NCBI GenBank assembly: GCA_963664305.2
Contig: CAXXLV010000002.1
Span: forward strand, 288,001-352,000
Source: an uncultured Aliarcobacter sp.
Lineage (GTDB): Bacteria > Campylobacterota > Campylobacteria > Campylobacterales > Arcobacteraceae
DNA: 64,000 bases
Reading direction: 5' to 3'
Made by a program: the position numbers and the translations under genes. Each line of letters opens with the position of its first letter. Positions within the stretch are counted from its first letter, which is position 1. Positions 17,511-60,462 of the stretch are shown piece by piece. The notes beneath the pieces are model-generated. The model searched no databases, had not been told where the DNA came from, and saw only the letters and a list, made by a program, of their open reading frames with translations.

Positions 17511-17524
17511 TGAATATTCATTCA
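17511..17524. promoter_or_regulatory. Candidate operator TGAAT-N4-ATTCA (distal, upstream of hydA)
   Basis: TGAAT-ATTC-ATTCA. Confidence 0.55.
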
Positions 17525-17724
17525 AAAAAAGTGTATATTAGTAACAGAGTTAAAAAAAACTGAATTAATATACCACTTATATGAAATTCGAACAAAAAAA
17601 TCACCTAAATACCATAAAATCAAAGATAAAAACTATAAATATTTTTATAAAAACTTAAATGTTATTTTAATGCTATTTTTAAATGTTTATTATTAAGTAA
17701 GACCTAAGTTTCTTATTGTTACTT

Positions 17725-17751
17725 TACAATAAAGTAAATGAATATTCATTT
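17725..17751 (+). promoter_or_regulatory. hydA -10 box with adjacent palindromic operator
   Basis: TACAAT 17725-17730; TAAAT-GAAT-ATTCA 17735-17748 overlapping the perfect palindrome AAATGAATATTCATTT 17736-17751. Confidence 0.6.
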
Positions 17752-17765
17752 TAAGGAGCAAAACT

Positions 17766-19001
17766 ATGATTGATTCAACGGAAATGGTAAAAAAAGTTTT
17801 TACCCAAAAGTCAGGAAAAGTTGAAACAAATAAAGGTGAAGTTTACTACAACTCTTTATTTGAGAAAACTAAACAAAGATTAAAAGATTTAAGAGCACAA
17901 GAACCTCTTAAAGATATTGATATGATGGATATAATTGAAAGTGAAGGAATAAATAGAAGAGATTTTATGAAGTGGGTTAGTGCTACAACTGCTACACTTA
18001 TGCTTCCTCCTATGTTTGCTCCACTTGTTGCAGAAGCAACTGAACTTATGAATAGAGTTCCAGTTATCTGGATAGAGTTACAAGACTGTGCTGGAAACTC
18101 TGAAGCTCTTTTAAGAAGTTCAGCTCCAACAGTAGATGACTTATTATTTGATGTGTTAAGTTTAGAGTATCATGAAACGCTACAAGCTGCTGCTGGACAT
18201 GATGCAGATAAACAACTTGAAGAAGCTGTTGAACACTTCAAAGGTAAATATATATTATTTGTTGAAGGTGCTATTCCAATGGCTATGAATGGTCAATATG
18301 GAACAATTGGTGCTATGGGTGAAACTTTCCATGACCATCTTGTAAGAATGTCAAAAGATGCTGCAGCTGTTGTTGCTGTTGGTACTTGTGCAACATTTGG
18401 AGGAATTCCTGCTGCTGCTCCAAATCCAACTGGTGCTGTTGGTGTTATGGATATTGTAAAAGGTAAGCCAATTATTAATATTCCTGCATGTCCTGCAAAC
18501 CCAGCTAACATGGTTGGTGTTGTTTTACACTATGTATTAACTGGACAAATTCCAGAACTTGATTCTTTACTAAGACCTAAATTTGCATTTGGATATAGAA
18601 TTCATGATAACTGTGAAAGAAGAGCACACTTTGATGCTGGTGAATTCGTAGAAGAGTGGGGTGATGAAGGTGCTAAAAATAACTGGTGTTTATATAAAGT
18701 TGGATGTAAAGGTCCTATGACATTTAATAACTGTTCAATCATCAGATATAACGAAGGTACAAACTGGCCAATTGGGGTTGGAAGAGGATGTATTGGATGT
18801 TCTGAGCCAGATTTCTGGGATAAATATGCTTATGAAAGACCAATGGCTGATGCAAAAATTAAAGCACCAACAGGCGGAGTTGAAAAAACAGTTGATGAGT
18901 TTGGTCTTGGATTATTAACAGCAACGGCTGTAGGTATTGGAGTTCATGCAGTTGCAAGTGTTGTTGCTGGTAAAAAATCAAATGAAGGAGAAGAAAAATA
19001 A
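17766..19001 (+). CDS. hydA: Membrane-bound [NiFe] uptake hydrogenase small subunit (group 1b-like)
   Basis: Tat motif RRDFMK at residues 64-69, QDCAGNSE, FeS cysteines, C-terminal TM anchor. Confidence 0.93.
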   Translation: MIDSTEMVKKVFTQKSGKVETNKGEVYYNSLFEKTKQRLKDLRAQEPLKDIDMMDIIESEGINRRDFMKWVSATTATLMLPPMFAPLVAEATELMNRVPVIWIELQDCAGNSEALLRSSAPTVDDLLFDVLSLEYHETLQAAAGHDADKQLEEAVEHFKGKYILFVEGAIPMAMNGQYGTIGAMGETFHDHLVRMSKDAAAVVAVGTCATFGGIPAAAPNPTGAVGVMDIVKGKPIINIPACPANPANMVGVVLHYVLTGQIPELDSLLRPKFAFGYRIHDNCERRAHFDAGEFVEEWGDEGAKNNWCLYKVGCKGPMTFNNCSIIRYNEGTNWPIGVGRGCIGCSEPDFWDKYAYERPMADAKIKAPTGGVEKTVDEFGLGLLTATAVGIGVHAVASVVAGKKSNEGEEK

Positions 19002-20743
19002 TGGCAAAAAAACATTTAGTAATTGACCCAATTACAAGAATAGAAGGACATCTTAGAATTGAAGCAATCATTGATGAAAACAATGTTGTAACAGATGCTT
19101 ACTCTTCTTCAACTATGTTTAGAGGAATTGAAGAGATTTTAAAAGGAAGAGACCCAAGAGATTGTGGACTTTTAGCTATGAGAATTTGTGGAGTTTGTAC
19201 AGGAACTCACTATCAAAGAAGTATTGAAGCTGTTGAACATGCATTTAATATTACAATTCCTAAAAATGCAAGATTAGTAAGAAACCTAATCCAAGGTGCT
19301 TTATATGTTCATGACCATATTGTTCACTTCTATCATTTACATGCTCTTGACTGGGTTGATATCACAGAAGCTTTAAAAGCAGATCCTAAAGCAACAGTTG
19401 CAGAAGCTCAAAAATGGGCAGCAGTTTCAGGACATAGACCATGGAATGCAACAGAAGATGTTTATGCACAAGTTCAAGAAAGAGTTACAAAATATGTAAA
19501 ACAAGGAAGACTTGGGATTTTTGGAAATGCATATTGGGGAAGCAAAGGATTTAAACTTACTCCTGAGCAAAACTTAATTGGACTTTCACACTATTTAGAT
19601 GCACTTGAATTACAAAGAGATTTAGCAAAAATGATGGCTATTTTTGGTGGTAAAAATCCACATCCACAATCTTTCGTTGTTGGTGGAGTAACTTGTGTTC
19701 AAGATATTAAAAATCCTGCAAGAATTGCAGAATTTAAACAAATCTTAAAAAGAGGTCAAAAGTTCACTAAAGAAGCATATTTACCAGATGTTTATATGGC
19801 TGGAACAATGTATGCAGAAGAAGCATTAGAAGGAATTGGTGGTGGTTTAGGAAACTATATGTCTTATGGAGACTTTAGATTAGATGATTTACCATTCTAT
19901 GAATCTTCAAAATTATTCCCTTCAGGAATTGTAAAAAATAAAGATTTATCAAAAGTTTATGAAATTGACCAAACAAAAATTACAGAAGATGTAACTCATG
20001 CTTGGTATGAAGGAAATACAAATCTTCACCCATTTGATGGAGTAACAAAACCTAACTATACAGGATTTGGTAAAAAAGAAGATAATATCGCTTATTTAGA
20101 TACAACTAAAAAATATTCTTGGATTAAATCACCATTATATAATGATGAAAGAATGGAAGTTGGACCATTAGCAAGGATGATTGTTGGTGTTGCTAAAGGT
20201 GATGAAAGAATTACAAAATATGTAACAACTTTCTTAAAAAATGGTAATTTACCAACAAAAGTATTATTCTCAACAGTTGGAAGAACAGCTGCAAGAGCTA
20301 TTGAAACTGAATTAATGGCTGATGTTATGATGGAATGGGTTGATGAATTAGCATCAAACGTTGCACATGGTGATTTATCAACTTGGACAGAATTTAACTT
20401 TGAAAATGTTTCTAAAGATTGTCAAGGTTATGGAATGGCTGAAGCTCCAAGAGGTGGATTAGGTCACTGGATAAAAATAAAAGATGGTAAAGTTGTAAAT
20501 TATCAAGCAGTTGTTCCATCAACTTGGAATGCAGCACCAAGAGATTATAAAGGAAGATTAGGTGCTTATGAATCATCATTAATTGGTACAAAAGTAGCAA
20601 ATCCTGATCAACCACTTGAAATTTTAAGAACTGTTCATAGTTTTGACCCATGTATTGCTTGTGCAGTACATATTATTGATACTAACGGTAAAGAGTTAGG
20701 AGTTTATAAAGTAGATCCAATTGGAGGAACAAGCCGTGCCTAA
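19001..20743 (+). CDS. hydB: Membrane-bound [NiFe] hydrogenase large subunit
   Basis: DPITRIEGHL, RICGVCTGTH, DPCIACAVH plus cleavable C-terminal tail. Confidence 0.96.
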   Translation: MAKKHLVIDPITRIEGHLRIEAIIDENNVVTDAYSSSTMFRGIEEILKGRDPRDCGLLAMRICGVCTGTHYQRSIEAVEHAFNITIPKNARLVRNLIQGALYVHDHIVHFYHLHALDWVDITEALKADPKATVAEAQKWAAVSGHRPWNATEDVYAQVQERVTKYVKQGRLGIFGNAYWGSKGFKLTPEQNLIGLSHYLDALELQRDLAKMMAIFGGKNPHPQSFVVGGVTCVQDIKNPARIAEFKQILKRGQKFTKEAYLPDVYMAGTMYAEEALEGIGGGLGNYMSYGDFRLDDLPFYESSKLFPSGIVKNKDLSKVYEIDQTKITEDVTHAWYEGNTNLHPFDGVTKPNYTGFGKKEDNIAYLDTTKKYSWIKSPLYNDERMEVGPLARMIVGVAKGDERITKYVTTFLKNGNLPTKVLFSTVGRTAARAIETELMADVMMEWVDELASNVAHGDLSTWTEFNFENVSKDCQGYGMAEAPRGGLGHWIKIKDGKVVNYQAVVPSTWNAAPRDYKGRLGAYESSLIGTKVANPDQPLEILRTVHSFDPCIACAVHIIDTNGKELGVYKVDPIGGTSRA

Positions 20744-21437
20744 AATAAAAGAGGTTAAAAGAATGACAGGAACTATGAGAATCATACATTGGGCAAATGC
20801 TATATGTATGGTAGTTGCTGTTGTAACCGGTTTATATATAGGTCATCCATACTATCAAACATTTATAGCAGATCCAGCAGTGGATAAATATGTAATGGCA
20901 TGGAATAGATGGGGACATTTTATTGTTGCAATTATTTTTGACGTAACTGCTGTATTAATTGGTTATTTATACTTCTTTTCAAGATTTGAAAAACCATATA
21001 AAAAACTAATTCCTACAAAGAAAAATATTGTTGAATTTTGTGAGGTATTTTTAAATTTAATTACTTTTAATAGAAGAAAAAATTTTGATTCTTCTCATAG
21101 TGATAGTTATAATATTGTATTTTTTACAATATTTCACTTATTGTTAATATTTATGTTATTTACTGGACTTCAGTTATATGTTCATGGTTTAGCTTCAGGA
21201 AACAGCTCTATTGGTGCTTGGTGGCCTGCCATGTTACATTTAACAACAGATTGGACTATAACAGTTTTTGGTGGAAATATGGGAGTTAGAATTGCTCATC
21301 ATACATCAATGTATTTGATTTTAGTTTGGGTAATGTGTCATATTTATTATCAAATCTGGAGAACAATCTTCTGGAAAGAGGGAGATATTGCTATTGTTAT
21401 TGGTGGTAGTAAATTTGTAAGAGAAGAAGAGAAATAA
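20736..21437 (+). CDS. hydC: Hydrogenase b-type cytochrome subunit
   Basis: RIIHW, four TM segments with heme-ligating His. Start likely GTG 20736 after GGAGGA. Confidence 0.9.
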   Translation: MPKIKEVKRMTGTMRIIHWANAICMVVAVVTGLYIGHPYYQTFIADPAVDKYVMAWNRWGHFIVAIIFDVTAVLIGYLYFFSRFEKPYKKLIPTKKNIVEFCEVFLNLITFNRRKNFDSSHSDSYNIVFFTIFHLLLIFMLFTGLQLYVHGLASGNSSIGAWWPAMLHLTTDWTITVFGGNMGVRIAHHTSMYLILVWVMCHIYYQIWRTIFWKEGDIAIVIGGSKFVREEEK

Positions 21438-21506
21438 GACTAAGCGCAAAGCTTAGTCTTATAACTTTTTTATAAGTTTAAATTGTAGATTTATAAAAGA
21501 GTTATA
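21435..21506 (+). terminator. Tandem hairpins between hydC and hydD (terminator or processing element)
   Basis: TAAGACTAAGC-GCAAA-GCTTAGTCTTA 21435-21461, then a 21-bp stem 21460-21480/21486-21506. Confidence 0.65.
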
Positions 21507-21519
21507 AAGGGTGTAATTT

Positions 21520-22110
21520 ATGAAAAAAAATATTGTTGTTGGCGTTGGAAATATGCTTTTTAAAGATGAAGGCATAGGAATTTATGCAAGTGAATATATC
21601 AAACAAAATTATGAGTTTGATGATAAAGATTTAGAAATCATTGATGGTGGAACATTAGGATTTAAATTAATGGCATATTTTCAAGAGTATGATAATGTAA
21701 TTATTTTAGATACAGTTTCTATAGAAGATGAAGTTGGAGGCATCTATAGACTTCCAAGTGATGTTCTTTTAGGACTTGGAAATTATAGAAAAACAGCTCA
21801 CGAAGTTGAAATTGTTGAGATGTTAGAGATAGTTTCTGTTTTAGATTCTCATGCAAATGTAACAATCATTGGAATTATTCCACAAGATATTGAAAGTGTT
21901 GAAATAGGGCTTACAAAAGCTATGGAAGATAAGTTTGAAGAGTTTATTCTAAATGGTATCAAAGAGATAGAATCTTTAGGTATTAAAGCAACAAAAATCA
22001 ATGATATAAAAATTAGTGATGTTGTAAAAAGCATGATTGGTAGTTACAATGGTGAACACTTAACTAGAATTCCAAATGAGGAAGATTTTACACATGCAAT
22101 TAATTTATAA
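21520..22110 (+). CDS. hydD: Hydrogenase maturation endopeptidase
   Basis: GVGNMLFKDEGIG, IDGGT, TAHE. Confidence 0.93.
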   Translation: MKKNIVVGVGNMLFKDEGIGIYASEYIKQNYEFDDKDLEIIDGGTLGFKLMAYFQEYDNVIILDTVSIEDEVGGIYRLPSDVLLGLGNYRKTAHEVEIVEMLEIVSVLDSHANVTIIGIIPQDIESVEIGLTKAMEDKFEEFILNGIKEIESLGIKATKINDIKISDVVKSMIGSYNGEHLTRIPNEEDFTHAINL

Positions 22111-23626
22111 AATAGAATTTAATACAACAAATTTATATTTTAAATATATTATAAACTCTTTAATAAAAGAAGCTAATGTAAATGCTGTTTGTAAACAATA
22201 TAAAGGCTTTATATTAATTATTTTAGAAGAAACATCAGAAAATATAGAGAGTTTTTTTGCTTTATTAGAAAAAAAACTTCCTATGTCTATTTTCATTGGA
22301 AATTCTTATGTAGTTGAAAGTTATGATGAAAATTTAGAAGAATTAGAAGATTTTGAAATAAAACAAAATCTTCATTTACTTACAAATGATGAAATAAAAA
22401 AGATTATAGAAGAAAACAATATTGATTTTTTAAATGATATTGTAAAAATATCAAAAGGTGAGATTTCAAGATTTGAAACACATAATGGTCTAAAAGACTA
22501 CTTTCTACCAAATAAAGATATTAGAGAAGATTTTGAAAGAAGAGGTTTTGAAGTTAAACTTCTTATTACTGATGTGTCAAAATTAGATGAACTTTTTGAT
22601 TTAAATATGAAAGATTTTCAACTTCTTTGTTCGATAGAAAGACCATTGGTAAAACTTAAATTTAAACTTTTAAAAAATGCTAATAAAGAGTTTAGTTCAA
22701 CAAATTTTATTTATGCAAAAATTCCTGATGATAAAGAAGTAGTTTTATTTGCAAAAGCTTTAAAAGAAAATGGCATAAACTATGTTTTATATACAAATGA
22801 TGAAGTTTATCAAGATGGATTAAAAGTTACATATACAAAAGAACAAAACATTATTATCTCAGGAGATAAAGGTTTATTCCCTAAATATGATTTTATTGCA
22901 AGAGAAAAGTTTAATAGTTCAAAAGAGTATTTTGATGCAAATGGTGGAGTTTACAAAGCAATTCTTGCTCAAACTGCAAAAAGATTAATTCCAACTGTTG
23001 GAGTATATTTTTCTTTAAATTCTCAAAATAGTTCAATTTCAATAAATATCCCAACAAAAGGTATTAAACAGATTATTGAAATACCAAATATTCATAATAG
23101 TATTAAAAATTGTTTTGAAGAAATAGCTGATATTGATGAACATTGTTCAAGATTAATTACTAATTTTTCTAAAAAATTTCCAAAAGTATTGGAAAATGAT
23201 GTTCCTGCAAATGCAAATGGATTTGAATCTATTATAAATTTATGTGCAAAAGTTTTAGGCGTAAATAGTGCTAAAGAGTTTGAAGATTATGCTTTAAGTA
23301 CAAGTTTATCAAGTGGTATTCAAATAGATATGAAACTTATAAATTTTAATGGGACTAATTATTTAGATTATAGAAGAGTAGTTCAATCAATCATGGCTTA
23401 TAAAATGGCAGATGTTGATAATATAACTCTAATTTATTCATTTTATGAAAGCTTGAGTGAATTTATTAGTAACTATGTAAATGAAATTGCAAAAGAGACA
23501 AAAGCAAATGATGTTGTTTTGTGTGGAAATATGTTTGCAAACTTAATTTTACTTTCAAAAACAACAAAAGCTTTAAGTAAAACTTACAATCTTATCCTTC
23601 CAAAAGAGTATCCATTAGATTATTAA
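22094..23626 (+). CDS. hydE: HydE-like protein (degenerate HypF fold)
   Basis: Follows hydD as in Campylobacterota hyd operons; SIERPLVKL and VVLCGNMFAN resemble HypF segments. Start likely ATG 22094. Confidence 0.65.
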   Translation: MQLIYKIEFNTTNLYFKYIINSLIKEANVNAVCKQYKGFILIILEETSENIESFFALLEKKLPMSIFIGNSYVVESYDENLEELEDFEIKQNLHLLTNDEIKKIIEENNIDFLNDIVKISKGEISRFETHNGLKDYFLPNKDIREDFERRGFEVKLLITDVSKLDELFDLNMKDFQLLCSIERPLVKLKFKLLKNANKEFSSTNFIYAKIPDDKEVVLFAKALKENGINYVLYTNDEVYQDGLKVTYTKEQNIIISGDKGLFPKYDFIAREKFNSSKEYFDANGGVYKAILAQTAKRLIPTVGVYFSLNSQNSSISINIPTKGIKQIIEIPNIHNSIKNCFEEIADIDEHCSRLITNFSKKFPKVLENDVPANANGFESIINLCAKVLGVNSAKEFEDYALSTSLSSGIQIDMKLINFNGTNYLDYRRVVQSIMAYKMADVDNITLIYSFYESLSEFISNYVNEIAKETKANDVVLCGNMFANLILLSKTTKALSKTYNLILPKEYPLDY

Positions 23627-23706: not shown

Positions 23707-24588
23707 ATGGATACTACATTTGACACACAAAATCTAAAAAAAGCACTTAGACAGCAACAAAATGAGATAAATGACCATACTATTTATAAGATTTTAGCAA
23801 CCTATCAAGATGATGAAAACAACAAAAAAATTTTTGAAAAAATATCAAAAGAAGAAAAAGCACACTATGATTTTTGGGTAAAAATTACAAATAAAGAGAT
23901 AAAAGCACAAAAATTTGTAGTATTGTGGTTTGTTTTTCTAGTAAAAATTTTTGGAACATCTTTTGCTTTAAAATCTTTGGAAAAAAGAGAAGCGGGAGCA
24001 GAGGAGTTTTACAAAGAACTTTTTGAAATCTATCCTGAATCACAAAAAATATATAAACAAGAAACTGAACATGAGTTTGAACTTATTGATATGTTAAATG
24101 ATAAAAAACTTTTATATGCTGGAGCTATAGTTTTAGGAATGAATGATGCTTTAGTTGAATTAACTGGAACATTAAGCGGAATAGCATTAGCTTTTGATAA
24201 AAGTTTGGTTGTTGGATTAACAGGATTGATTATGGGAATAGCTGCATCTTTATCAATGGCGGGATCAGCTTATCTTGAAGCTAAAGAAAATCCAATTGAA
24301 GAGATAAATCCTTTAGTTTATTCACTTTATACAGGTGTTTCTTATATTTTAACAACAGCTATTTTAGTTATTCCATTTTTTATATTTGATTCAATGATAG
24401 AATCATTAATAATGATGTTTATTGGTGCATTTATAGCTATTCTTTCTTATAATTTTTATATTAGTGTAGCAAAAGATTTAAGTTTTAGTAAAAGAGTGCT
24501 TCAAATGTCAGCAATTACATTTGGAGTTGCAATAATCTCATTTTTGATAGGTTACTTAGTAAAATATTATTTTGGACTTGAAATATAA
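23707..24588 (+). CDS. Ferritin/rubrerythrin-like domain fused to a VIT1/CCC1 transporter
   Basis: EEKAH and ETEHE diiron-like motifs; IVLGMNDALVE and GIAASLSMAGSAYL VIT1 motifs. Confidence 0.85.
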   Translation: MDTTFDTQNLKKALRQQQNEINDHTIYKILATYQDDENNKKIFEKISKEEKAHYDFWVKITNKEIKAQKFVVLWFVFLVKIFGTSFALKSLEKREAGAEEFYKELFEIYPESQKIYKQETEHEFELIDMLNDKKLLYAGAIVLGMNDALVELTGTLSGIALAFDKSLVVGLTGLIMGIAASLSMAGSAYLEAKENPIEEINPLVYSLYTGVSYILTTAILVIPFFIFDSMIESLIMMFIGAFIAILSYNFYISVAKDLSFSKRVLQMSAITFGVAIISFLIGYLVKYYFGLEI

Positions 24589-24646: not shown

Positions 24647-24730
24647 AAATGAATCTTTATTCATTTAGTCAAGAAAATTTAACCAAAAAGATTATAGAAT
24701 GCTTTTAATAAAAAAGTGAATACCTATTCA
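24647..24730 (+). promoter_or_regulatory. Two TGAAT-N4-ATTCA sites flanking a -10 box
   Basis: AAATGAAT-CTTT-ATTCATTT 24647-24666; TAGAAT 24695-24700; TGAAT-ACCT-ATTCA 24717-24730. Confidence 0.65.
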
Positions 24731-24745: not shown

Positions 24746-26146
24746 ATGGTTAAAGAACTTCCTAATAAAAGTTCAATTTCTTTATTTGAAGAGAAAAAAA
24801 TCCCCTTTTGTCAGACTTGTTTAAAAGAAGTAGAAGAAGAGGGAAATAAAGAGTATTACAATGCTTTTAAATCTTGTAAAAATTGTACGGGATTTGAAGA
24901 AGCAAAATTTATTTTTGAAAAAAAAGAGATAGCTTCAAATAAAATATTATTTGAAAAACTTGCTTCATTAATAAATGAAGATAAAAAGATAAAAATAAAA
25001 ACATTAAGTGGAATATTTATCTTTTCTAAACTAAAAAACATTGAGAATAGTTCAAAATTATTAGTAACAAATCTAAAAAATATCAATACTCTAGTTATTG
25101 AAAAAAAAGTAGAAATAGAAGCTTTATCCAGCGTGGAAAAACCATCTATTGATTTTGAAATAAATGAGAGTTATAAACAAAAGAACAATATAAAAAAAGA
25201 GAAGATTAATATCAGATTTTCAAATGATTTAACTTTATTTTTATTGTCAAAAAAGTTAGAGAAATATGAGATAAATTTTTTAAATATTGAAGAAACTGGT
25301 GAATTTGACTATTTTTTAGATGTAAAATGTAAAAAAGATATTTATATAGATATTCCAAAAATCAAATGTTTTGATGATAAAAAATTGATTTTAGAATCAA
25401 ATTCTTATCCAAAAAAGTTAGATTTGGTATTTGAAAAATTTAAAGAAAAAAATAAAGCTCAATTTATGACAGTTTTATGGGAAAATAATCTTTTTAAAGA
25501 GTCAATATTAAACTTTTATATTAGTAGTAAAAATAATGATGGAATAAGTTACTATTCTGAAGAAATAGATGGCTTAGTTGATATTATAGAGCCATTACCT
25601 ATTCCAAAATCTATAAAAAAGATATTTGAAGAAATAGAAAAAGAGTCAAAAGGTAAAAAGCTTATTTCAAGCTATAAAAAAAAGTTTCCAGAAGATTATA
25701 AAATAGCTTTAAATAGTCCAATATCTTTCGTAAATAATTCCTTTTTTACATACTTTCAAATAGCTAAAATAGTTTTAAATTTTGAAAAAGAGATACTTGA
25801 AAATGCAACAGAATGTTTGTTAGAAAAAGGACTTAGAATAGATTATAAATTATTTGATTCTAAAAAGATATTTCATAGAAAATTTGATTATATAGCACTG
25901 TTTAGCTCAGCAATTAGTTTTAAACTAGCAGGTGTGGATGAAAGAGCTATATCTCTAGGATTTATTGAAAGTTTAGCGAATTTTATTGCAAATGAAATAG
26001 ATAATATAAATAGTGTTTATGCTATTTCAGGAATTAGTTTATGTGGAGATATGTTTACTAATGATAAGTTCAATTTTTTAGTAGAAAAAAATATAACAAA
26101 GAGTTTTAAAATCTATTACAATAAAGAGTTTGTCATTCAAAAATAG
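24746..26146 (+). CDS. Second HypF/HydE-like degenerate protein with one zinc finger
   Basis: CQTC-x18-CKNC aligns with HypF CEDC-x18-CTNC; KIKTLSGIF, SVEKPSI, ISLCGDMF. Confidence 0.65.
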   Translation: MVKELPNKSSISLFEEKKIPFCQTCLKEVEEEGNKEYYNAFKSCKNCTGFEEAKFIFEKKEIASNKILFEKLASLINEDKKIKIKTLSGIFIFSKLKNIENSSKLLVTNLKNINTLVIEKKVEIEALSSVEKPSIDFEINESYKQKNNIKKEKINIRFSNDLTLFLLSKKLEKYEINFLNIEETGEFDYFLDVKCKKDIYIDIPKIKCFDDKKLILESNSYPKKLDLVFEKFKEKNKAQFMTVLWENNLFKESILNFYISSKNNDGISYYSEEIDGLVDIIEPLPIPKSIKKIFEEIEKESKGKKLISSYKKKFPEDYKIALNSPISFVNNSFFTYFQIAKIVLNFEKEILENATECLLEKGLRIDYKLFDSKKIFHRKFDYIALFSSAISFKLAGVDERAISLGFIESLANFIANEIDNINSVYAISGISLCGDMFTNDKFNFLVEKNITKSFKIYYNKEFVIQK

Positions 26147-26179: not shown

Positions 26180-28426
26180 ATGATAAATTTAAAAATAGAA
26201 GTTACAGGTATAGTTCAAGGGGTAGGTTTTCGTCCTTTTATATATAATCTAGCGATAAAACATAATATAAAAGGCTGGGTTAATAATGACGAAAAAGGTG
26301 TAAATATTTTTCTTTATGCAAAAGAAGAAGATATAGAAAACTTTACAGATGAACTAAAATCAAATCCTCCAATCTTGGCAAAAATAGATTCAATAAAAAT
26401 TGAAAAAATAACTAATAAAACTGACTATAAAGATTTCCAAATAATAGAGAGTTCAAGCTCAAATAATAAAACTACAATTATCTCTCCTGACATTGCAATA
26501 TGTGAAGATTGTATCAATGAAATCAATGATATGTCTAACTTTAGATACAATTATTGTTTAACAAATTGTACAAATTGTGGCCCTAGATATTCTATAATAA
26601 AAACTGTACCTTATGATAGAGAAAATACCTCTATGAGAGAGTTTAAATTATGCAAAAAATGCCAAGAAGAGTATGAAAATCCTACAAATAGAAGATATCA
26701 TGCTCAGCCAGTTTCTTGTGAAGTTTGTGGCCCTAATGCAACTTTGTATAATAAAAAAAATATAGAAATATCTAACAATATAGAAGCGATAGAAAAAACA
26801 GCTAAATTAATAGATGAAGGTTACATCGTAGCTGTAAAAGGAATGGGTGGTTTTCATTTAATATGTGATGCTACAAATGATAAAATTGTAAGTAAATTAA
26901 GGACTATTAAGAATAGACCAACTAAGCCATATGCACTACTTTTTAATAATATTAATACTATTAAAGAATATACAAATATAGATTTTATAGAAGAAGAGAT
27001 TTTAAACTCTAAAGAGAAACCAATTGTTCTTGTAAATAAAAAAGAAAATAGCTCCTTATCAAAATACATAGCACCAAATGTTAATAAATTAGGATGCTTT
27101 ATAGCTTATACACCTTTACACCATTTGTTATTTAGATATATAAACAAACCACTTGTTGCAACAAGTGCAAATCTTAAAGATGAACCAATAATAAGAAGTA
27201 AAAAAGAGATTTTTGAGAAGTTGATAGATGTTGTTGATTTTATTTTAGATTTTAATAGAGAAATCGTAAATGCATGTGATGATTCTATTATACAAGTTGT
27301 TAAAAAATATAATATAAAACTAAGAAATGCTAGAGGTTATGCACCAACTGCAATAAAATTGGATAAAAAAGTTGATAAAAAGATTTTATCTTTAGGTGCA
27401 AATCAAAAATCTACTATCTCATTAGCCTTTGAAAATAATTTAATTTTATCTCCTCATATTGGAGATTTAAACTCTATAGAATCAGTTGAATATTTTGAAA
27501 GAACAATTAATACTTTTAAAAATTTTTATGATTTTGAACCAGAAGTTGTAATTTGCGATAAACATCCAAATTATGAATCTACAAAAATAGCTTTAAAACT
27601 AAAAGAAAATAATCCAAATATTAAATTGGTTCAAATACAGCATCATTATGCACATATTCTTTCTGTAATGGCTGAAAATAGACTTGATGAAGAAGTTTTA
27701 GGCTTTGCATTTGATGGAACAGGTTATGGAGATGATGGGAATATTTGGGGAGGTGAAGTATTATTAACTACAAGAAAAGAGTATAAAAGGGTTAAGTATA
27801 TCAAATACTTTAGACTTTTTGGTGGAGAAATGGCAGTAAAAGAGCCAAAAAGAGTTGCTTTGAGTCTTTTATTTGATACTTTTTCATTAGATGAAATTTT
27901 AGCTTTAGATATTCCAACTGTAAAGGCATTTAAAGAAGCAGAAATCAAAATGTTTTATACAATGTGGCAAAAAGGATTAAATGCACCTTTATGTAGCTCT
28001 ATAGGGCGTTTATTTGATGCAATTTCTTCTTTTGCAGATATTTTACATACTCAAACTTATGAAGGTGAAACGGGCTTACAAATAGAGCAAAACTATGATA
28101 GTTCGATAACTTCATCATATTCTTATGAAATAACTGAAAATGAAATAGATTTAAGACCAATAATAAAAGAATTAATTAAAGAAAAAGATAAAAAAATCAT
28201 CTGTTCTAAATTCATAAATACTATTGTAAATCTTATTTTAGAAATCTCAAATTCATACAAAAATTTACCTGTTATTTTAAGTGGTGGAGTTTTTCAAAAT
28301 AAAACTTTACTTGAAATTTTAATTGATAAATTTGAAGAGCAGGGTAGAGTTCTTTACTTCAATATTGATATTCCATCAAATGATGGTGGTATCAGTATAG
28401 GACAAATATATCATCAATACATATAA
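26180..28426 (+). CDS. hypF: Carbamoyltransferase HypF
   Basis: GIVQGVGFRPF, two CxxC-x18-CxxC fingers, QHHYAH, DGTGYG, PSNDGG. Confidence 0.97.
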   Translation: MINLKIEVTGIVQGVGFRPFIYNLAIKHNIKGWVNNDEKGVNIFLYAKEEDIENFTDELKSNPPILAKIDSIKIEKITNKTDYKDFQIIESSSSNNKTTIISPDIAICEDCINEINDMSNFRYNYCLTNCTNCGPRYSIIKTVPYDRENTSMREFKLCKKCQEEYENPTNRRYHAQPVSCEVCGPNATLYNKKNIEISNNIEAIEKTAKLIDEGYIVAVKGMGGFHLICDATNDKIVSKLRTIKNRPTKPYALLFNNINTIKEYTNIDFIEEEILNSKEKPIVLVNKKENSSLSKYIAPNVNKLGCFIAYTPLHHLLFRYINKPLVATSANLKDEPIIRSKKEIFEKLIDVVDFILDFNREIVNACDDSIIQVVKKYNIKLRNARGYAPTAIKLDKKVDKKILSLGANQKSTISLAFENNLILSPHIGDLNSIESVEYFERTINTFKNFYDFEPEVVICDKHPNYESTKIALKLKENNPNIKLVQIQHHYAHILSVMAENRLDEEVLGFAFDGTGYGDDGNIWGGEVLLTTRKEYKRVKYIKYFRLFGGEMAVKEPKRVALSLLFDTFSLDEILALDIPTVKAFKEAEIKMFYTMWQKGLNAPLCSSIGRLFDAISSFADILHTQTYEGETGLQIEQNYDSSITSSYSYEITENEIDLRPIIKELIKEKDKKIICSKFINTIVNLILEISNSYKNLPVILSGGVFQNKTLLEILIDKFEEQGRVLYFNIDIPSNDGGISIGQIYHQYI

Positions 28427-31449: not shown

Positions 31450-31452
31450 AAT

Positions 31453-45528: not shown

Positions 45529-45543
45529 TTTTTAGGAAAAAAT

Positions 45544-46356: not shown

Positions 46357-46358
46357 TT

Positions 46359-47805: not shown

Positions 47806-47815
47806 GGATTAAAAG

Positions 47816-48436
47816 ATGTCAAAAAATATAGAAAATGCAATTTATAATGAAAAATTACCATCAGGTCTTCCATGGGCAGGTGTTATTAAAAAAGGGCAAA
47901 CTTTCAGAATTGTTGATTTAGAAGGTTGTCAAGCAGTAGATACACTTTTTTACAATAACGATAATTACAATGATAGATATAGTGCAAATGATACTATTAG
48001 AGAACAAGGAAGTATTTTTATTACTACTGGAACAAAACTTATTTCAATAGATGATAATGTGTTAATGGAAATTACAGAAGATACTTGTGGAAATCACGAT
48101 ACTTTAGGTGGACATTGTAGTGCTGAAAGTAATAGTGTTAGATTTGGTTTAGATAAAAAATATATGCATTCTTGTAGAGATAATTACTTAACAATTGCGG
48201 CACAACTTGAAATGAGTCCAAAAGATATTACAAATAATATTAACTTTTTTATGAATGTACCAGTTGAAGAAAATGGACATTTAGCAATAGTTGATGGTAT
48301 CTCAAAACCAGGTGATTATGTGGAAATGGTAGCACATATGGATACATTAGTTTTAATTTCAAATTGTCCACAATTAAACAATCCATGTAATGGATATAAC
48401 CCAACTCCAATACAATTAATTATTTGGGACAAATAG
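47816..48436 (+). CDS. cgdB: Carboxyguanidine deiminase subunit B (DUF1989 family)
   Basis: DTCGNHDTLGGHCSAESN, NINFFMNVP, SNCPQLNNPCN. Confidence 0.9.
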   Translation: MSKNIENAIYNEKLPSGLPWAGVIKKGQTFRIVDLEGCQAVDTLFYNNDNYNDRYSANDTIREQGSIFITTGTKLISIDDNVLMEITEDTCGNHDTLGGHCSAESNSVRFGLDKKYMHSCRDNYLTIAAQLEMSPKDITNNINFFMNVPVEENGHLAIVDGISKPGDYVEMVAHMDTLVLISNCPQLNNPCNGYNPTPIQLIIWDK

Positions 48437-48468
48437 TTAGTTAAAAGCCCAAAAGAGCTAATTCTTTT

Positions 48469-48513
48469 TATCTTATTAGACGACTTATAAGATATATTCA
48501 TACGGGACGGCCC
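48469..48513 (+). ncRNA. Guanidine-II (mini-ykkC) riboswitch inside the operon
   Basis: P1 TATCTTATTAG-ACGA-CTTATAAGATA (48469-48494), 9-nt linker, P2 GGG-ACGG-CCC (48504-48513): two ACGR-capped hairpins just upstream of the carboxylase SD. Confidence 0.85.
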
Positions 48514-48537
48514 CAAATTATACTTCAAGGATATAAA

Positions 48538-51500: not shown

Positions 51501-52134
51501 AGCTTATATGTGTGTTTATGGTATGGAAGGACCAGGAGGTTATCAACTTTTTGGAAGAACTTTACAAATGTGGAACACATATAGAAGTACAAATGAGTTT
51601 ACAAAACCTTGGTTATTAAGATTCTTTGACCAAGTTCGGTTTTATTTAGTTTCAAGTGATGAGTTACATGATATTAGAGAGAAGTTTTTATATGGAAAAT
51701 ATCCTTTAAAAATTGAAAATGGAACATTTAAACTAAAAGAGTATAAAGAGTTTTTAGAAAACAACAAAAAAGAGCATACAAGTTTCCAATCAATGCGAAA
51801 ACAAGCTTTTGAAGATGAAAGATTGATGTGGAAAGAAAAAGGACTTGATAAATTTAATGTTCAAGCTGATGTTATTGAAGTAAAAAATGAGATTGTTTTA
51901 AATGAGAATGAAGAAGCCGTTGAATCTATCATGTCTGGAAATATTTGGAAAATTGAAGTTAAAGAGGGAGATAAAGTAAAAGCTGGTGAAGTTTTAGTTA
52001 TTTTAGAATCAATGAAAATGGAAGTTGATATTGAAACAAATATTAGTGGAACGGTTGAAAAAATTCTTTTTAAAGAGGGTGATAATATAAATTCTGGTGA
52101 TGTTTTAGTAATCATCAAAAAGGATGAAAAATGA
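48538..52134 (+). CDS. uca: Guanidine (urea) carboxylase
   Basis: Biotin carboxylase, carboxyltransferase and biotinyl (ESMKME) domains; HPSNIHD...TIDFTGD; GTG start. Confidence 0.95.
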   Translation: MFKRVLIANRAEIANRVIRTLKKMGIESVAIYSEADKHASFVRNANISVQLHGTTLEETYLNYKKIIEICKEYNVDAIHPGYGFLSENVNFVKECEKNGIIFIGPTSKQIEDFGLKHTARDIAKANNVPLLEGSELLTSLEMAKEVANTIYYPVMLKSTAGGGGIGMKLCFNEEELVQAYESVIKLATSNFSNGGVFLEKYIETARHIEVQIFGDGNGNVKTLGERDCSIQRRNQKVIEETPAPNISDELRKELFEASKKLALAVNYKSAGTVEYIYDTKTNKFYFLEVNTRLQVEHGITEEVCGVDLVEWMIRIAYGDNKPLLDYIHNPKGHAIQLRVYAEDASKNFQPSTGLITKVEFPKDLRIDTWIEDGCEVSPFYDPLLAKLISYGKNREENLEKLQEVLKTSKIYGIESNLSYLEAILKQDFFKNSSFYTKVLEKLEYKPFKVDILKSGTMTSIQDYPARQNFWAVGIPPSGAMDNLTPRLLNHLLKNDEKAAFIEMTFMGATFKFRNSTTISFGGADMQATLNGNSVEMYKAINVKENDVLEFKKVIGNGNRTYLAIKGGFDVASYLGSSSTFTLGEFGGHSGRALKAGDVLNYFETKDEVYEELANKINLVNEWEIGVVYGPHGSPDFFTTEDIKEFFATSWEVHFNSSRTGVRLIGPTPKWARNDGGEAGLHPSNIHDNAYAFGTIDFTGDMPVILGPDGPSLGGFVCPATIISCELHKIGQLKTGDKIKFKPLCLENADLMNLAFEKAIKANEVLPNLADFIIDFDEEKATPIIKTFNYKELDLDIVIRSAGNEFVLVEAGELKLDIELRFFIHALMTYIEEKNLTSIIDLTPGIRSLQIHFNSLEIDRSEILKLVEEAINSLKDIENLEVESRTVYLPLSWNDPSIQLAIDKYQQGVRPNAPWCPSNIEFIRRINGLKDVDEVQRIILDASYLVMGLGDVYLGAPVATPLNPAHRMVTTKYNPARTWTAQNSVGIGGAYMCVYGMEGPGGYQLFGRTLQMWNTYRSTNEFTKPWLLRFFDQVRFYLVSSDELHDIREKFLYGKYPLKIENGTFKLKEYKEFLENNKKEHTSFQSMRKQAFEDERLMWKEKGLDKFNVQADVIEVKNEIVLNENEEAVESIMSGNIWKIEVKEGDKVKAGEVLVILESMKMEVDIETNISGTVEKILFKEGDNINSGDVLVIIKKDEK

Positions 52135-53459
52135 ATTTAAATATTAAAGATTTAAGAGCAAAATATTTAAGTGGTGAAGTTACAGTAAAAGAAGTAATTT
52201 TATCTATTTTTGAAAAAATTGAGCAAACAAGAGATTCTAATATTTGGATTTATACTTTAACTGAAGATGAAATAAGTTTTTATTTAAAAAATTTAGAAAA
52301 TAAAAATATAGAGGATTTACCACTTTATGGTATTCCTTTTGCTATAAAAGATAATATTGATTTAGTAAATATTCCTACAACAGCTGCTTGTCCTGAATTT
52401 TCTTATACTCCAAAAAAATCAGCTTTTGTGGTTGAAAAGTTAATCCAAGCTGGAGCTATTCCAATTGGAAAAACAAATCTTGACCAATTTGCAACAGGAC
52501 TTGTGGGAACACGAAGTCCTTATGGAGAGTGTAGAAATTCAATAAACAAAGAGTATATCTCTGGTGGTTCAAGCTCAGGAAGTGCAGTTGCAGTAGCACT
52601 TGAAATGGCTAGTTTTTCACTTGGAACTGATACTGCTGGAAGTGGAAGAGTTCCAGCTGCTTTTAATAATCTAATAGGATTAAAAGCTACAAAAGGAGTT
52701 ATTAGTACAAGTGGTGTAGTTCCTGCTTGTAGAAGTTTGGACTGTGTGACGGTTTTTGCAAAAGATTTAAGTTCGATAGAAGAGGTATTTAAAGTTGCAA
52801 ATGCTTATGATGAAGAGGATATTTATAGTAGACATTATGAAAAAGTAGAGTTTGAAGAAAAAGCAAAATTTTCTTTTGCTATTCCAAAAAAAGAGCAATT
52901 AAAATTCTTTGGTGATGAGGAATCAAAAAATCTATTTGAAGAAGCTATTAAAAAGTTTGAAAGTCTAGGTGGAAAGGCTTTTGAAATTGATTATGAACCA
53001 TTTAATGAAAGTGCAAACTTACTTTATAGTGGACCTTGGGTAACGGAGAGATTTATAGCTATAAAAGAGGTTATTACAAAAACTTCAGATGTTGTTGAGC
53101 AAACAGTTAGAAAAATCATAAGTGGTGGAGAAAATATAAATGCTATCAACTATTTTGAATCAGAATATATCTTGAAAAAGAATAGAAAAAAAGCTGAAAA
53201 GTTGTTTGAAGAGTTTGATTTTATGTTAACACCAACAACAGGAACAATTTATAAAATAGAAGAAGTAAACAACAATCCAATAGAACTTAATACAAATCTT
53301 GGATATTACACAAATTATATGAATCTACTTGATTTATCTGCAATTGCAGTTCCTGCTGGAAATAGAGTAAATGGTTTGCCTTTTGGAGTTACGGTTGTAG
53401 CAAAAAACTTTGAAGAAGAAAAACTATTAAGTTATGCTTCAAAATATCTAGGAGTTTAA
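52131..53459 (+). CDS. atzF: Allophanate hydrolase, amidase domain
   Basis: KDNID, GKTNLDQFATGLVGTRSPYG, GGSSSGS, GTDTAGSGRVPA. Confidence 0.92.
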   Translation: MNLNIKDLRAKYLSGEVTVKEVILSIFEKIEQTRDSNIWIYTLTEDEISFYLKNLENKNIEDLPLYGIPFAIKDNIDLVNIPTTAACPEFSYTPKKSAFVVEKLIQAGAIPIGKTNLDQFATGLVGTRSPYGECRNSINKEYISGGSSSGSAVAVALEMASFSLGTDTAGSGRVPAAFNNLIGLKATKGVISTSGVVPACRSLDCVTVFAKDLSSIEEVFKVANAYDEEDIYSRHYEKVEFEEKAKFSFAIPKKEQLKFFGDEESKNLFEEAIKKFESLGGKAFEIDYEPFNESANLLYSGPWVTERFIAIKEVITKTSDVVEQTVRKIISGGENINAINYFESEYILKKNRKKAEKLFEEFDFMLTPTTGTIYKIEEVNNNPIELNTNLGYYTNYMNLLDLSAIAVPAGNRVNGLPFGVTVVAKNFEEEKLLSYASKYLGV

Positions 53460-53460
53460 A

Positions 53461-53862
53461 ATGAATGAAAATGAGATTTTAATCGGTGTTTGTGGAGCTC
53501 ATATGAGTGGATTGCCTTTAAATTGGCAATTAATAGATTTAGAAGCTACTTTTGTAAAAAAATGTAAAACAAAAAAAGGTTATAGACTTTTTTTACTTGA
53601 AAATAAAACTCCTATTAGACCTGGTATGATTTATGATAGTTCTGTTAAAAGTCAATTAGAACTTGAAGTTTGGTCTATGAATGTGGAAAACTTTGGAAAG
53701 TTTATGAAACAAATAGCAAGTCCACTTGGAATAGGAACAGTATTTTTAGAAGATGAAAGTAGTGTTTATGGCTTTTTATGTGAAGCAGATTATGTAAAAA
53801 ACTCAAAAGAGATAACAAGTTTAGGAAGCTGGAGAAACTTCTTATGTCAGCAACAACAATAG
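53461..53862 (+). CDS. Stand-alone allophanate hydrolase C-terminal domain
   Basis: VCGAHMSGLPLNWQL, ELEVW, PLGIGTV, GFLCE; own AGGAG SD. Confidence 0.88.
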   Translation: MNENEILIGVCGAHMSGLPLNWQLIDLEATFVKKCKTKKGYRLFLLENKTPIRPGMIYDSSVKSQLELEVWSMNVENFGKFMKQIASPLGIGTVFLEDESSVYGFLCEADYVKNSKEITSLGSWRNFLCQQQQ

Positions 53863-57107: not shown

Positions 57108-57119
57108 TTGGGACAAGTT

Positions 57120-59093: not shown

Positions 59094-59214
59094 AAGAAGC
59101 CCTTTGAAGAAAAAATAAAATAATCAAGCAATTTATAAAAAACAAACATAAAGTTAGCTTAAATGGTAAAGAAAAATTTATGATTTTAATTAAAAAAATT
59201 TATGGGATAATATT

Positions 59215-59859: not shown

Positions 59860-59874
59860 GGTTTTATTTTAGCA
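59860..59874 (-). promoter_or_regulatory. Extended -10 promoter giving a probable leaderless mRNA
   Basis: Minus strand reads TGCTAAAAT-AAAACC-ATG, with no SD. Confidence 0.65.
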
Positions 59875-59975
59875 TTTTAATATTATAAATTGGTATTAAA
59901 GGATTGATAATTGCATAGTTTAAACAATAAGAGTAATATACTTTTAAATAAAAAAATAATGAAAGGTTGAAAAAA

Positions 59976-60368
59976 GTGAAAATAGCAATTCCAGTAAAAG
60001 ATGAGAATTTGACATTTTTTAGCAATGCAGGACATACTCCAAAATTTGCTATATACGAATTGACTGGTTCAGGTATGTTTAAATCTTTTAAACTAAATTC
60101 AATAATAGTAAATCCAAGAACTGATATTGACCATGACCATGCAGAAGAAGACCACGTTTGTGACCATGGGCATGATGATGAAGAACATATAAAAGAACAC
60201 AATAAAATGGGAATTGCATTAAAAGATTGTAATTACATAGTTGTTAAAAAAGCATGTAAAAATACTGCAAACTCTTTTACTTCTGTTGGGATAAAACTTG
60301 TTAAATATAGTGGTGAAGCACTAGATGTAAATACTATATTAAAAGAGACATCATCTTCATTTAAATAA
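59976..60368 (+). CDS. NifB/NifX-like metallocluster-binding protein with His-rich insert
   Basis: MKIAIPV (GTG 59976), AGHTPKFAIYE, HDHAEEDHVCDHGHDDEEH, LKDCNYIV. Confidence 0.72.
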   Translation: MKIAIPVKDENLTFFSNAGHTPKFAIYELTGSGMFKSFKLNSIIVNPRTDIDHDHAEEDHVCDHGHDDEEHIKEHNKMGIALKDCNYIVVKKACKNTANSFTSVGIKLVKYSGEALDVNTILKETSSSFK

Positions 60369-60448
60369 AAAAATCTTGTTCTATAAATATATAAGTGATA
60401 CAAAATTGTCAGATGTAATTTAGACTTTTTGAGTTAAACTATCTAAAA

Positions 60449-60462
60449 TGAATAAATATTCA
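60449..60462. promoter_or_regulatory. TGAAT-N4-ATTCA site upstream of hypB
   Basis: TGAAT-AAAT-ATTCA, abutting TAAAAT at 60444-60449. Confidence 0.65.

Follow-up and report, generated by a model that had tools for sequence, protein, structure and literature searches.

In the known route of H2 sensing, a sensor hydrogenase (HupUV or HoxBC) acts first, followed by a kinase (HupT or HoxJ) and then by a regulator (HupR or HoxA). Sensor hydrogenases are marked by a large subunit that lacks a C-terminal extension. In Helicobacter pylori, NikR controls both hydrogenase and nickel uptake, according to the accessible sections of a 2019 review, which describe the regulation of H2 oxidation in Campylobacterota outside Helicobacter as poorly understood (PMC6682613). 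In Campylobacter jejuni, the repressor of cmeABC has an operator known as the CmeR box, given in the available text as TGTAAT-N4-ATTACA (PMC7062675). For Sulfurospirillum multivorans, the accessible part of a study by Kruse et al. mentions a TetR-like gene upstream of hupSL that might repress hupSL (Kruse et al. 2017, PMC5357620). Lastly, both group 1b hynAB sets of A. butzleri are reported to rise 2.3- to 6.2-fold with H2; the available part of the supplement to that study lists gene annotations, without expression values for hyp or tetR (PMC12286921). Here, we discuss a repeated palindrome, TGAAT-N4-ATTCA, in 64,000 nt of DNA from an uncultured Aliarcobacter sp. (contig CAXXLV010000002.1, positions 288,001 to 352,000; this whole stretch is referred to as “the window”), and the TetR-family regulator encoded in the same window that we consider likely to act through it.

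The palindrome was first noticed in a reading of the sequence, which proposed that one repressor coordinates hydrogenase structural and maturation genes, the best candidate being a TetR co-transcribed with a cytoplasmic hydrogenase. Our analysis leads to the same view, with a wider set of targets: the TetR repressor probably controls a regulon of hydrogenase, maturation, and electron-donor genes via TGAAT-N4-ATTCA. The sites are real and much more frequent than chance would give, relatives keep them, and their occurrence goes together with that of TetR. TetR binding, repression, and the promoter positions we infer from the arrangement of the sequence. The half-sites are fixed, the spacer is free, the sites lie on or shortly past the putative −10 region, they co-occur with TetR, and the reading head of the protein is unchanging; therefore, a TetR dimer that represses by occlusion is the predicted mode of action. 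The elements concerned are as follows.

17511-17524, no strand: predicted distal operator copy, TGAATATTCATTCA; its first base is the one next to the huaL stop codon, and hydA lies 255 nt downstream
17725-17730, + strand: −10-like hexamer TACAAT of the putative hydA promoter; TTTACA(A/T)T is kept in an alignment of 24 genomes
17735-17748, no strand: predicted proximal hydA operator, TAAATGAATATTCA, within a perfect 16-bp palindrome, AAATGAATATTCATTT, at 17736-17751
24650-24663, no strand: predicted operator copy, TGAATCTTTATTCA, ~32–45 nt upstream of a TAGAAT hexamer
24717-24730, no strand: predicted operator copy, TGAATACCTATTCA, 17 nt past TAGAAT (24695-24700) and 16 nt ahead of an ATG
60449-60462, no strand: predicted hypB operator, TGAATAAATATTCA, abutting TAAAAT at 60444-60449

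The window holds exactly the four exact copies that had been listed (17511-17524, 24650-24663, 24717-24730, and 60449-60462) and no other, and the one-mismatch copy at 17735-17748, TAAATGAATATTCA, is likewise present. All five are intergenic, as described, and occupy spacers of the hyd and hyp genes. In 100 dinucleotide-preserving shuffles, the exact pattern occurred 0.39 times on average (maximum 2), close to the ~0.4 estimated beforehand, and none of the 100 reached four. One-mismatch copies as a class are not enriched in the window, with 10 observed and 13.0 expected. In the whole source genome (2.78 Mb), there are 10 exact sites, as compared with five for a reversed-pattern control. Three of the 10 lie inside open reading frames (ORFs) and seven are intergenic, four of the latter being the hyd/hyp sites of the window; ~540 nt of hyd/hyp intergenic DNA thus hold 4/10 of the exact sites in the genome. 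In addition, an exact copy stands upstream of hydA in the 53% G+C DNA of an Aquificaceae record (L241). Since four copies compare with 0.39 expected, and since an exact copy is found in 53% G+C DNA, a chance origin of the window sites is excluded.

An alternative, that the palindromes are RNA hairpins in 5′ leaders or chance products of AT-rich DNA, is very improbable. It could draw on the position of sites within or next to predicted leaders, on a longer inverted repeat around the hypB copy, and on genome-wide counts of the bare pattern, which are near the reversed control in most genomes of the genus; from these counts, it follows that just a handful of copies per genome are functional. However, the arms keep their sequence without covariation while the four-base center varies freely, and this is the signature of protein recognition. 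Moreover, five mostly A-U pairs make a weak stem, the 17511 and 24650 copies lie outside any leader, and chance is excluded by the shuffles and by the copy in 53% G+C DNA.

Three hexamers had been taken for −10 boxes with the palindrome just downstream. TACAAT (17725-17730), TAGAAT (24695-24700), and TAAAAT (60444-60449) are indeed in the sequence, but their role as −10 boxes is putative, because a scan for the sigma-70 consensus cannot separate promoters from AT-rich background: in this 27% G+C DNA, it returned 77 promoter-like matches in the window, with 74.3 expected from shuffles. As the match count equaled the shuffle level, we dropped the scan as a means of placing promoters.

The candidate regulator and its immediate neighbors are encoded upstream of the first site.

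14676-15269, + strand: gene for a 197-aa TetR-family regulator, with ATT as non-canonical start codon; TetR_N match of 55.6 bits
15259-16152, + strand: cytoplasmic [NiFe] hydrogenase small subunit, huaS/hupS-like, 297 aa; Pfam Oxidored_q6 and NiFe_hyd_SSU_C
16155-17510, + strand: cytoplasmic [NiFe] hydrogenase large subunit, huaL/hupL-like, 451 aa; Pfam NiFeSe_Hases
17766-22110, + strand: hydABC, encoding a Tat-exported (twin-arginine translocation) uptake hydrogenase, its large subunit, and cytochrome b, with hydD for a maturation protease; by Pfam

The 3′ end of tetR overlaps the start of huaS by 11 nt, and huaL begins 2 nt after huaS; hence, we consider tetR-huaS-huaL to be one operon. The presence of a TetR beside the cytoplasmic hydrogenase, part of the original prediction, is real: the full-length form scores 55.6 bits on TetR_N, with a cut-off of 24, and the match to this profile (PF00440) covers residues 12–55 of the ATT-initiated protein. 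The ORF that starts with ATG (14784-15269) is truncated, lacks the helix-turn-helix, and scores just 15.2 bits. The frame has an in-frame TAA at 14664, AAGGA at 14665-14669, and the ATT at 14676, six bases behind AAGGA. Because the TAA closes the frame and the helix-turn-helix precedes the first ATG, the start must be the ATT at 14676. The same place is occupied by ATT in most of 26 orthologs from the genus and by ATA in a few; a conserved weak start codon may keep the level of the repressor low.

The protein is a member of the TetR/AcrR family by its TetR_N domain and its fold. An AlphaFold2 model is all-helical, with nine helices (pLDDT 89), and a Foldseek search with it found FadR (3whb), 2gen, 4me9, and RutR at template-modeling scores of 0.74–0.80 and probability 1.00. 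TetR proteins of solved structure align with it chiefly over the N-terminal domain (best E 1.2e-09), and its scores against NCBIfam equivalogs all stay below the cut-offs, the best being BetI (46.1 bits, cut-off 201.3). As a member of this family, it is predicted to bind a palindrome as a dimer and to be released by a ligand or signal; the 14- to 16-bp palindromes that co-occur with its gene are indirect evidence. The recognition helix, MSVGNxYNYFxSK, is nearly invariant across 20 orthologs: S40, G42, Y45-N46-Y47-F48, S50, and K51 are the same in all, and M39, V41, and N43 in ≥90%. Such near-invariance is what one expects for a fixed operator.

A second conserved element, GCEGxxC (G119-C120-E-G122-x-x-C125), forms a loop between helices 6 and 7, with G119, C120, G122, and C125 invariant in 20/20 orthologs. 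Residues 112–126 around it are the sole long non-helical stretch of the model and have the lowest confidence. Both the recognition helix and the loop are kept in orthologs from Aquificota, including those without adjoining huaSL. In Hydrogenimonas (L262), there are two tandem TetR paralogs: an insertion alters the cysteine loop of one, and the second lacks the loop; no huaSL stands beside them in the stretch examined.

We assessed conservation in 44 genomes of the GTDB (Genome Taxonomy Database) genus, the source genome included. A TetR ortholog (87–98% identity) is encoded in 26 of the 44. These genomes are not independent samples, and those without TetR may form few clades. Wherever both coordinates are listed, tetR and hydA share a contig, with tetR ~3 kb upstream. 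The proximal hydA palindrome is the most widely conserved of the window’s sites: in an alignment of upstream regions, 23/24 module-carrying genomes have it with at most one mismatch. It has the form AAATGA-N4-TCATTT, which is the TAAAT-N4-ATTCA of the original prediction, and its central bases alone vary. A second copy further upstream is exact in 15/24 genomes and has one mismatch in 2/24; it stands either at the equivalent of 17511 or ~70 nt downstream of it, with a varying spacer (AATC, ACTT, GATT, and AAAC, among others). Genus members without TetR have no site at hydA (0/6), with a remnant, GAATATTTAC, in some, and with the other promoter blocks kept.

Loci unlinked to tetR follow the same pattern. 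Upstream of hypB, 43 kb from tetR, an exact copy is found in 19/22 TetR-carrying genomes and a one-mismatch copy in 1/22, at −31 to −47 and with six different spacers. Near the gene, eight out of eight TetR-less genomes lack a copy, even though four of them conserve the block TTTAGACTTTTTGRGTTAAACT ahead of hypB, which is altered in the other four; one (G023) has an unrelated one-mismatch word 284 nt upstream. A scan of the genome with a position weight matrix led to a third locus, an operon for a Tat-exported SorA-like molybdoenzyme and cytochrome c, elsewhere on the chromosome. Here, the site is exact in 8/10 TetR-carrying genomes, has one mismatch in another (G016), and is degenerate in the last (G056); it is absent from 5/5 TetR-less genomes, which keep the blocks ATGCTA-N5-ATGCTA, TTAAGT..., and CTATAAT. 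With the SorA-like operon included, the predicted regulon is wider than H2 metabolism in this clade.

The pair of sites upstream of the HypF-like gene was compared with the closest relative (G046). Both are exact there, and the spacer of the 24717 copy changes from ACCT to ACTT. Orthologs of the 466-aa HypF-like protein are encoded in just 3/24 genus genomes (G001, G008, and G012) and are ~74 residues longer at the N terminus. We rejected this gene as a comparative anchor, since the three orthologs lack an upstream intergenic region and G046 alone is comparable. Two genomes (G008 and G042) have two uptake hydrogenases, and in both of them the gene for the second small subunit is immediately preceded by an exact site. 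In sum, the palindrome is conserved upstream of hydA, of hypB, and of the HypF-like/hypF operon, and the comparison supports the claim that one site-specific factor links structural and maturation genes.

The hypB palindrome is the center of a longer inverted repeat, with AAACTAT at 60436-60442 and ATAGTTT at 60469-60475. The resulting 40-bp repeat (60436-60475; AAACTAT-N6-TGAAT-N4-ATTCA-N6-ATAGTTT) is kept in most TetR-carrying genomes of the genus and may offer room for a second dimer, or form a leader hairpin.

Further blocks upstream of hydA occur independently of TetR: GTGTA-N5/6-GTAACA, (A)TGCTA-N5/6-(A)TGCTA, and TTAAG-N7/8-TAAGTT (17530-17545, 17649-17664, and 17692-17710). The TGCTA repeat and a TTAAGT block are also found ahead of the SorA-like operon, whether or not the genome encodes TetR, which suggests a second, shared regulator of electron-donor enzymes; as a guess, the 11-bp TGCTA spacing would fit a response regulator.

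Beyond the genus, we considered 151 genomes of the order, again counting the source genome. A TetR ortholog (47–83% identity, mostly >50%) is encoded in 65 of the 150 others, and in 31/69 genera when the source genus is counted. At all 19 loci examined from other genera, tetR is directly followed by the gene for the cytoplasmic small subunit, and the large subunit comes next at all 16 that reach it. Among 20 longer regions from other genera and families, 17 reach hydA; an exact copy lies 15–45 nt before the hydA start in 11 of these, a one-mismatch copy lies near the start in five, and the last has none. The consensus of the order-level copies is TGAATGAnnATTCA. Where a TACAAT/TAAAAT-like hexamer is visible, these copies are 2–4 nt past it and ahead of the ribosome-binding site (RBS); in most relatives that carry tetR-huaSL, the palindrome stands 2–5 nt behind a −10-like hexamer upstream of hydA. 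By contrast, 19 of 20 genomes without a TetR match (from families f4, f5, f6, f8, f11, f14, f15, f16, f22, f24, f25, and f26) have no copy upstream of hydA at up to one mismatch. In the twentieth (G098), the site is present; its contig ends before the tetR position, and since the C terminus of huaL stands directly upstream of hydA, this genome carries the module. Besides the genus, no fewer than four families (f4, f6, f8, and f15) show this contrast between genomes with and without TetR among their own members.

Among named records, TetR is found at 52–61% identity in Sulfurimonas, Sulfurovum, Sulfuricurvum, Sulfurospirillum, Hydrogenimonas, Poseidonibacter, and Nautiliales, and in Aquificota (Persephonella, Aquificales, Hydrogenothermaceae, and Aquificaceae). 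In 12 of 14 records examined, the sequence reaches hydA; the upstream copy is exact in eight of the 12 and has one mismatch in four. Records from Persephonella, Aquificales, and Aquificaceae have both TetR (54–61% identity) and the site upstream of hydA, and two from Aquificota also have a copy upstream of hypB (exact in L220, one mismatch in L219, from Persephonella). The expectation that the motif would be conserved in relatives is thus borne out across the genus, other families, Nautiliales, and Aquificota, with fixed half-sites and a free spacer. In two Aquificaceae records (L241 and L260), TetR with its GCEGxxC loop and the site occur beside hydAB, with no huaSL in the 5.5–5.9 kb examined; they lend themselves to testing whether TetR depends on the cytoplasmic hydrogenase.

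The targets in other genera include nickel uptake. In five distant complete genomes, there are 15 exact copies, with five for the control. Five of the 15 stand at hydA, and five more stand before hypB, operons for Ni/Co transporters of the energy-coupling factor (ECF) type, or a membrane protein gene preceding hypB, in the following positions.

All five genomes: exact copy upstream of hydA
G137: exact copy directly before hypB, in the order TATAATT, site, RBS, MCKDCGC
G137: exact copy before a DUF4198-...-CbiM-...-ABC (ATP-binding cassette) operon beside tetR
G071: exact copy before a CbiM-...-ABC operon between hypF and hypB
G027 and G040: exact copy before the gene for a 213–217-aa membrane protein preceding hypB

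The source genome’s own Ni/Co ECF (CbiM) operon has no upstream site at up to one mismatch. We considered three further sites of the source genome. The site at C1:615073, in the spacer between nfo-like and Pyr_redox_2 genes, is identical in G046, but the entire spacer is nearly identical there, and its conservation is uninformative. Another exact or high-scoring site, at C2:704997, is associated with malic enzyme. A one-mismatch copy at C2:1491214 (L193 2515-2528) lies ~47 nt upstream of a gene for a cytoplasmic methyl-accepting chemotaxis protein with a CZB zinc-binding domain; a CheY-like gene comes next. This copy has an exact counterpart in G046 and none in 4/4 other relatives, and is probably not a conserved target.

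Within the genus, the site tracks TetR at three loci that are not linked to one another; in the wider order, it does so at hydA. Given this pattern and the near-invariance of the recognition helix, the best candidate for the factor is, as had been proposed, the TetR whose gene is co-transcribed with the hydrogenase; the counts of co-occurrence cover this TetR alone. We envisage that the palindromes at or slightly past the −10 regions of hydABCD, HypF-like/hypF, and hypBCD would be occupied by a TetR dimer, which would block transcription until a signal releases it. The proximal site (17735) would control the hydABCD operon, while the extra copies at 17511 and 24650 may let a further dimer bind, so that repression is cooperative. 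Since a terminator scan found no terminator-like site between huaL and hydA, the 17511 copy might in addition halt transcription that runs on from the hua operon. Candidate releasing signals are H2, via HuaSL, and redox state or metal, via the GCEGxxC loop; alternatively, the hua promoter might set the level of TetR. As tetR is co-transcribed with huaSL, a fall of the huaSL transcript under H2 would itself lower the repressor, with no ligand involved.

Several observations weigh against TetR acting through the palindrome. Two TetR-carrying genomes of the genus (G001 and G008) have no hypB site, the copies in G056 are degenerate at both hydA and the SorA-like operon, and the one region of the order without a hydA copy (L157) carries TetR and lacks the site within 330 nt of hydA. 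No full site occurs upstream of tetR in 26 genomes of the genus, and most order-level genomes are alike in this, with one-mismatch copies in L143, L144, and L155; the lack of a site at the regulator’s own promoter is unusual for TetR repressors. TetR and HuaSL are always syntenic with hydA, and the co-occurrence at hydA alone could therefore reflect a different intergenic region. The hypB and SorA-like loci answer this objection within one genus only, whose members are non-independent. Lastly, S. multivorans, in the accessible text, expresses hydB constitutively and hupL at a barely detectable level, which misfits simple on/off repression (PMC5357620).

Some of these points would also suit another explanation, that a different factor, for example of the CRP/FNR type, binds the palindrome and that TetR regulates something else. 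The 5-N4-5 geometry is common to FNR-type sites, the tetR promoter mostly has no site, and the other conserved blocks indicate that additional factors act at these promoters. We nevertheless consider this explanation improbable: the site follows TetR across the genus, the order, and Aquificota, including families with both kinds of genomes, and TetR is the sole DNA-binding protein encoded in the conserved module. NikR, for its part, is not a ready candidate, as NikR_C (PF08753) has no match in the source genome (99.96% complete, and searched except for 8000 bases); the same profile matches 5/14 genomes.

If TetR is the factor, the next question is what releases it, and here the partner enzyme is of interest. 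HuaSL is a group 2 cytoplasmic [NiFe] hydrogenase by its domains, by its lack of a Tat signal, and by its closest relatives. The N terminus of HuaS has no RRxF Tat motif, whereas HydA has RRDFMKW. HuaL ends in ...FDVCSVCTTH, its last residue being the His that follows the C-terminal CxxC, and it lacks a cleavable extension; HydB has ...CIACAVH followed by 24 further residues. The active-site motif is CGIC in HuaL and CGVC in HydB. The best solved relative of HuaL is 7UTD, deposited as “Hydrogenase-2, large subunit” (E 1.7e-46), which we take to be mycobacterial Huc, of group 2a. In the accessible text on A. butzleri, huaSL is classed as group 2d, and its huaS is equally 894 nt long (PMC12286921); the 2d label that we use for HuaSL rests on that classification.

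The original prediction included a circuit in which this hydrogenase is the sensor, a proposal that refines, rather than replaces, the assignment of the operator to TetR. Regulatory hydrogenases have a large subunit without a C-terminal extension and with a CGIC-type trait, as does HuaL, in which CGIC replaces the CGVC of HydB. HuaSL would sense H2 and reduce or contact TetR via the GCEGxxC loop, TetR would leave the DNA, and the regulon would be switched on. We regard this as possible, though on the doubtful side. The three genes tetR, huaS, and huaL overlap or abut, and their order is the same in the other genera (19/19 loci for the small subunit, 16/16 reaching the large). TetR is better conserved than its partners, with cross-family identities of 54–61% for TetR, 44–53% for HuaS, and 31–43% for HuaL, and of 81–83%, 63–65%, and 57–58%, respectively, in two genera of the same family. 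The joint control of structural, maturation (HypB), and nickel-uptake genes argues for a signal meaning that hydrogenase is wanted, and wanted now, over nickel homeostasis. In A. butzleri, H2 raises both hynAB sets (PMC12286921), but it also lowers huaSL transcripts, in cultures that, by the available text, differed as well in electron donor and nitrogen end product. For group 2d enzymes, the accessible sections on S. multivorans leave the function open, and the barely transcribed hupL and constitutive hydB described there count against a sensor (PMC5357620). Also unfavorable are L241 and L260, where TetR and the site persist beside hydAB with no huaSL in the 5.5–5.9 kb examined, and the SorA-like operon, a member of the regulon with no link to H2. 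A complex prediction for TetR, HuaS, and HuaL, made with their own alignments, scored 0.26, with the mark at 0.32, and says nothing either way. The complete proposal, that the group 2d hydrogenase is the H2 sensor of a one-component circuit, signaling by electrons or contact at GCEGxxC, and that the uptake hydrogenase, Hyp proteins, nickel uptake, and some electron-donor genes are off until H2 is present, seems to us rather unlikely as a whole.

A further possibility, which we hold only tentatively, is that TetR itself senses metal or redox state through the Cys-x4-Cys loop, which might hold nickel or an Fe-S cluster or act as a thiol switch; HuaSL would then be just a co-regulated or co-located enzyme. 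The loop residues are invariant in 20/20 orthologs and kept in Aquificota, also where no huaSL adjoins, though one tandem Hydrogenimonas paralog has lost them, and the loop is the least confident, non-helical part of an otherwise confident model. With no NikR found in the source genome, another nickel-linked regulator would fill a gap, and the regulon holds HypB and, elsewhere, Ni/Co ECF transporters. However, a repressor released by nickel would induce nickel uptake and thus not be homeostatic, and the strict linkage to huaSL in Campylobacterales would be unexplained.

The remaining genes of the window that belong to hydrogenase maturation, or that lie near it, are listed here.

22076-23626: 516-aa HypF_C_2-like protein, with the HypF_C_2 part only; by Pfam
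23707-24588: VIT-like membrane protein; by Pfam
24746-26146, + strand: 466-aa HypF-like protein, with weak zf-HYPF and HypF_C_2 matches
26180-28426, + strand: hypF, with the full HypF domain set; by Pfam
60496-62736, + strand: hypB (with a His-rich N terminus), hypC, and hypD; Pfam cobW/HypB, HupF_HypC, and HypD

Two HypF-like paralogs (516 and 466 aa) accompany the true hypF. After hypD, where hypE is usually found, there is a DUF5677 gene (62737-63951); neither hypE nor hypA was located among the Pfam-annotated genes. HydA, which scores 455.9 bits on the NCBIfam hydA subfamily, has an unusually long leader (17766-17975), with ~63 residues before the twin-arginine motif (RRDFMKW, residues 64–70). 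This leader is conserved, as alignments with other families begin at residues 1–6. A cluster at 44452-53862 comprises an NMT1-type binding protein, an ABC transporter, two DUF1989 proteins, a 1198-aa urea carboxylase-like biotin enzyme, and a split allophanate hydrolase; it looks like ordinary ATP-dependent urea degradation.

The prediction supplies a concrete regulator and a 14-bp operator for the control of H2 oxidation, a pairing kept across two phyla, Campylobacterota and Aquificota. The predicted regulon comprises the uptake hydrogenase or hydrogenases, the hypB and hypF operons, Ni/Co uptake in some genera, and the SorA-like operon in this clade. Sequence suffices to predict it in Arcobacter relatives, Sulfurimonas, Sulfurovum, Sulfurospirillum, Nautiliales, and Aquificota, which live at vents, in sediments and wastewater, and in animal hosts, and the pair of operator and TetR could mark regulated H2 use in metagenomes. 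The role of group 2d hydrogenases, tied to TetR in 19 Campylobacterales loci, becomes directly testable. Should the signal be H2, the system is a possible starting point for an H2-responsive genetic switch. A true H2 circuit would be a third way of sensing H2, free of a histidine kinase and common to Campylobacterota and Aquificota, and TetR would be the first regulator of its family read out by a metalloenzyme partner.

The nearest characterized system is CmeR with its box. Like the TetR described here, CmeR, by the available account, is a TetR-family dimer from the same order whose inverted repeat overlaps a promoter, with the same geometry (5- to 6-bp arms and N4) as (A)TGAAT-N4-ATTCA(T). 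The two differ in the sequence of the half-site and in their targets: an efflux pump for CmeR; hydrogenase, maturation, Ni uptake, and the SorA-like operon here. In addition, the present TetR is set apart by its invariant Cys-x4-Cys loop, by its fixed pairing with a hydrogenase operon, and by the lack, in most genomes, of a copy at its own promoter. NikR resembles it as a single regulator that, in Campylobacterota, joins the control of [NiFe]-hydrogenase genes to that of nickel; NikR, however, is a ribbon-helix-helix protein with other operators, and NikR_C was not found in the source genome. The likeness to HupUV/HoxBC lies in a cytoplasmic group 2 [NiFe] hydrogenase without the extension, encoded beside a regulator and a regulated uptake hydrogenase. 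Of the traits of 2b sensors, HuaL shares the absent C-terminal extension, whereas a cognate PAS-histidine kinase and NtrC-type regulator do not accompany it. No kinase gene lies between or directly beside tetR-huaS-huaL-hydA, in the window or at 19/19 loci from other genera, though no search for HupT or HoxJ was made in the rest of the genome; a TetR occupies that place, and signaling between enzyme and TetR is putative. The enzyme, moreover, is of the Aquificae type, group 2d and not 2b by the label given to A. butzleri in the accessible text (PMC12286921).

The TetR-like gene of S. multivorans looks, by the position given in the available text, like the same gene, directly upstream of hupSL, which precedes hydABC. 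Similarly, a record of S. cavolei has a 58% identical TetR ortholog in the same tetR-hupSL-hydABC arrangement. Unlike the present analysis, the accessible part of the S. multivorans account describes neither an operator nor a connection to hydA, hyp, or Ni uptake, and it includes no phylogenetic survey (PMC5357620). Among open-access texts, we found none that describes, for these bacteria, a hydrogenase regulon under TetR or its operator. What we found in print is the adjacency of the genes; the operator and the regulon appear to be new.

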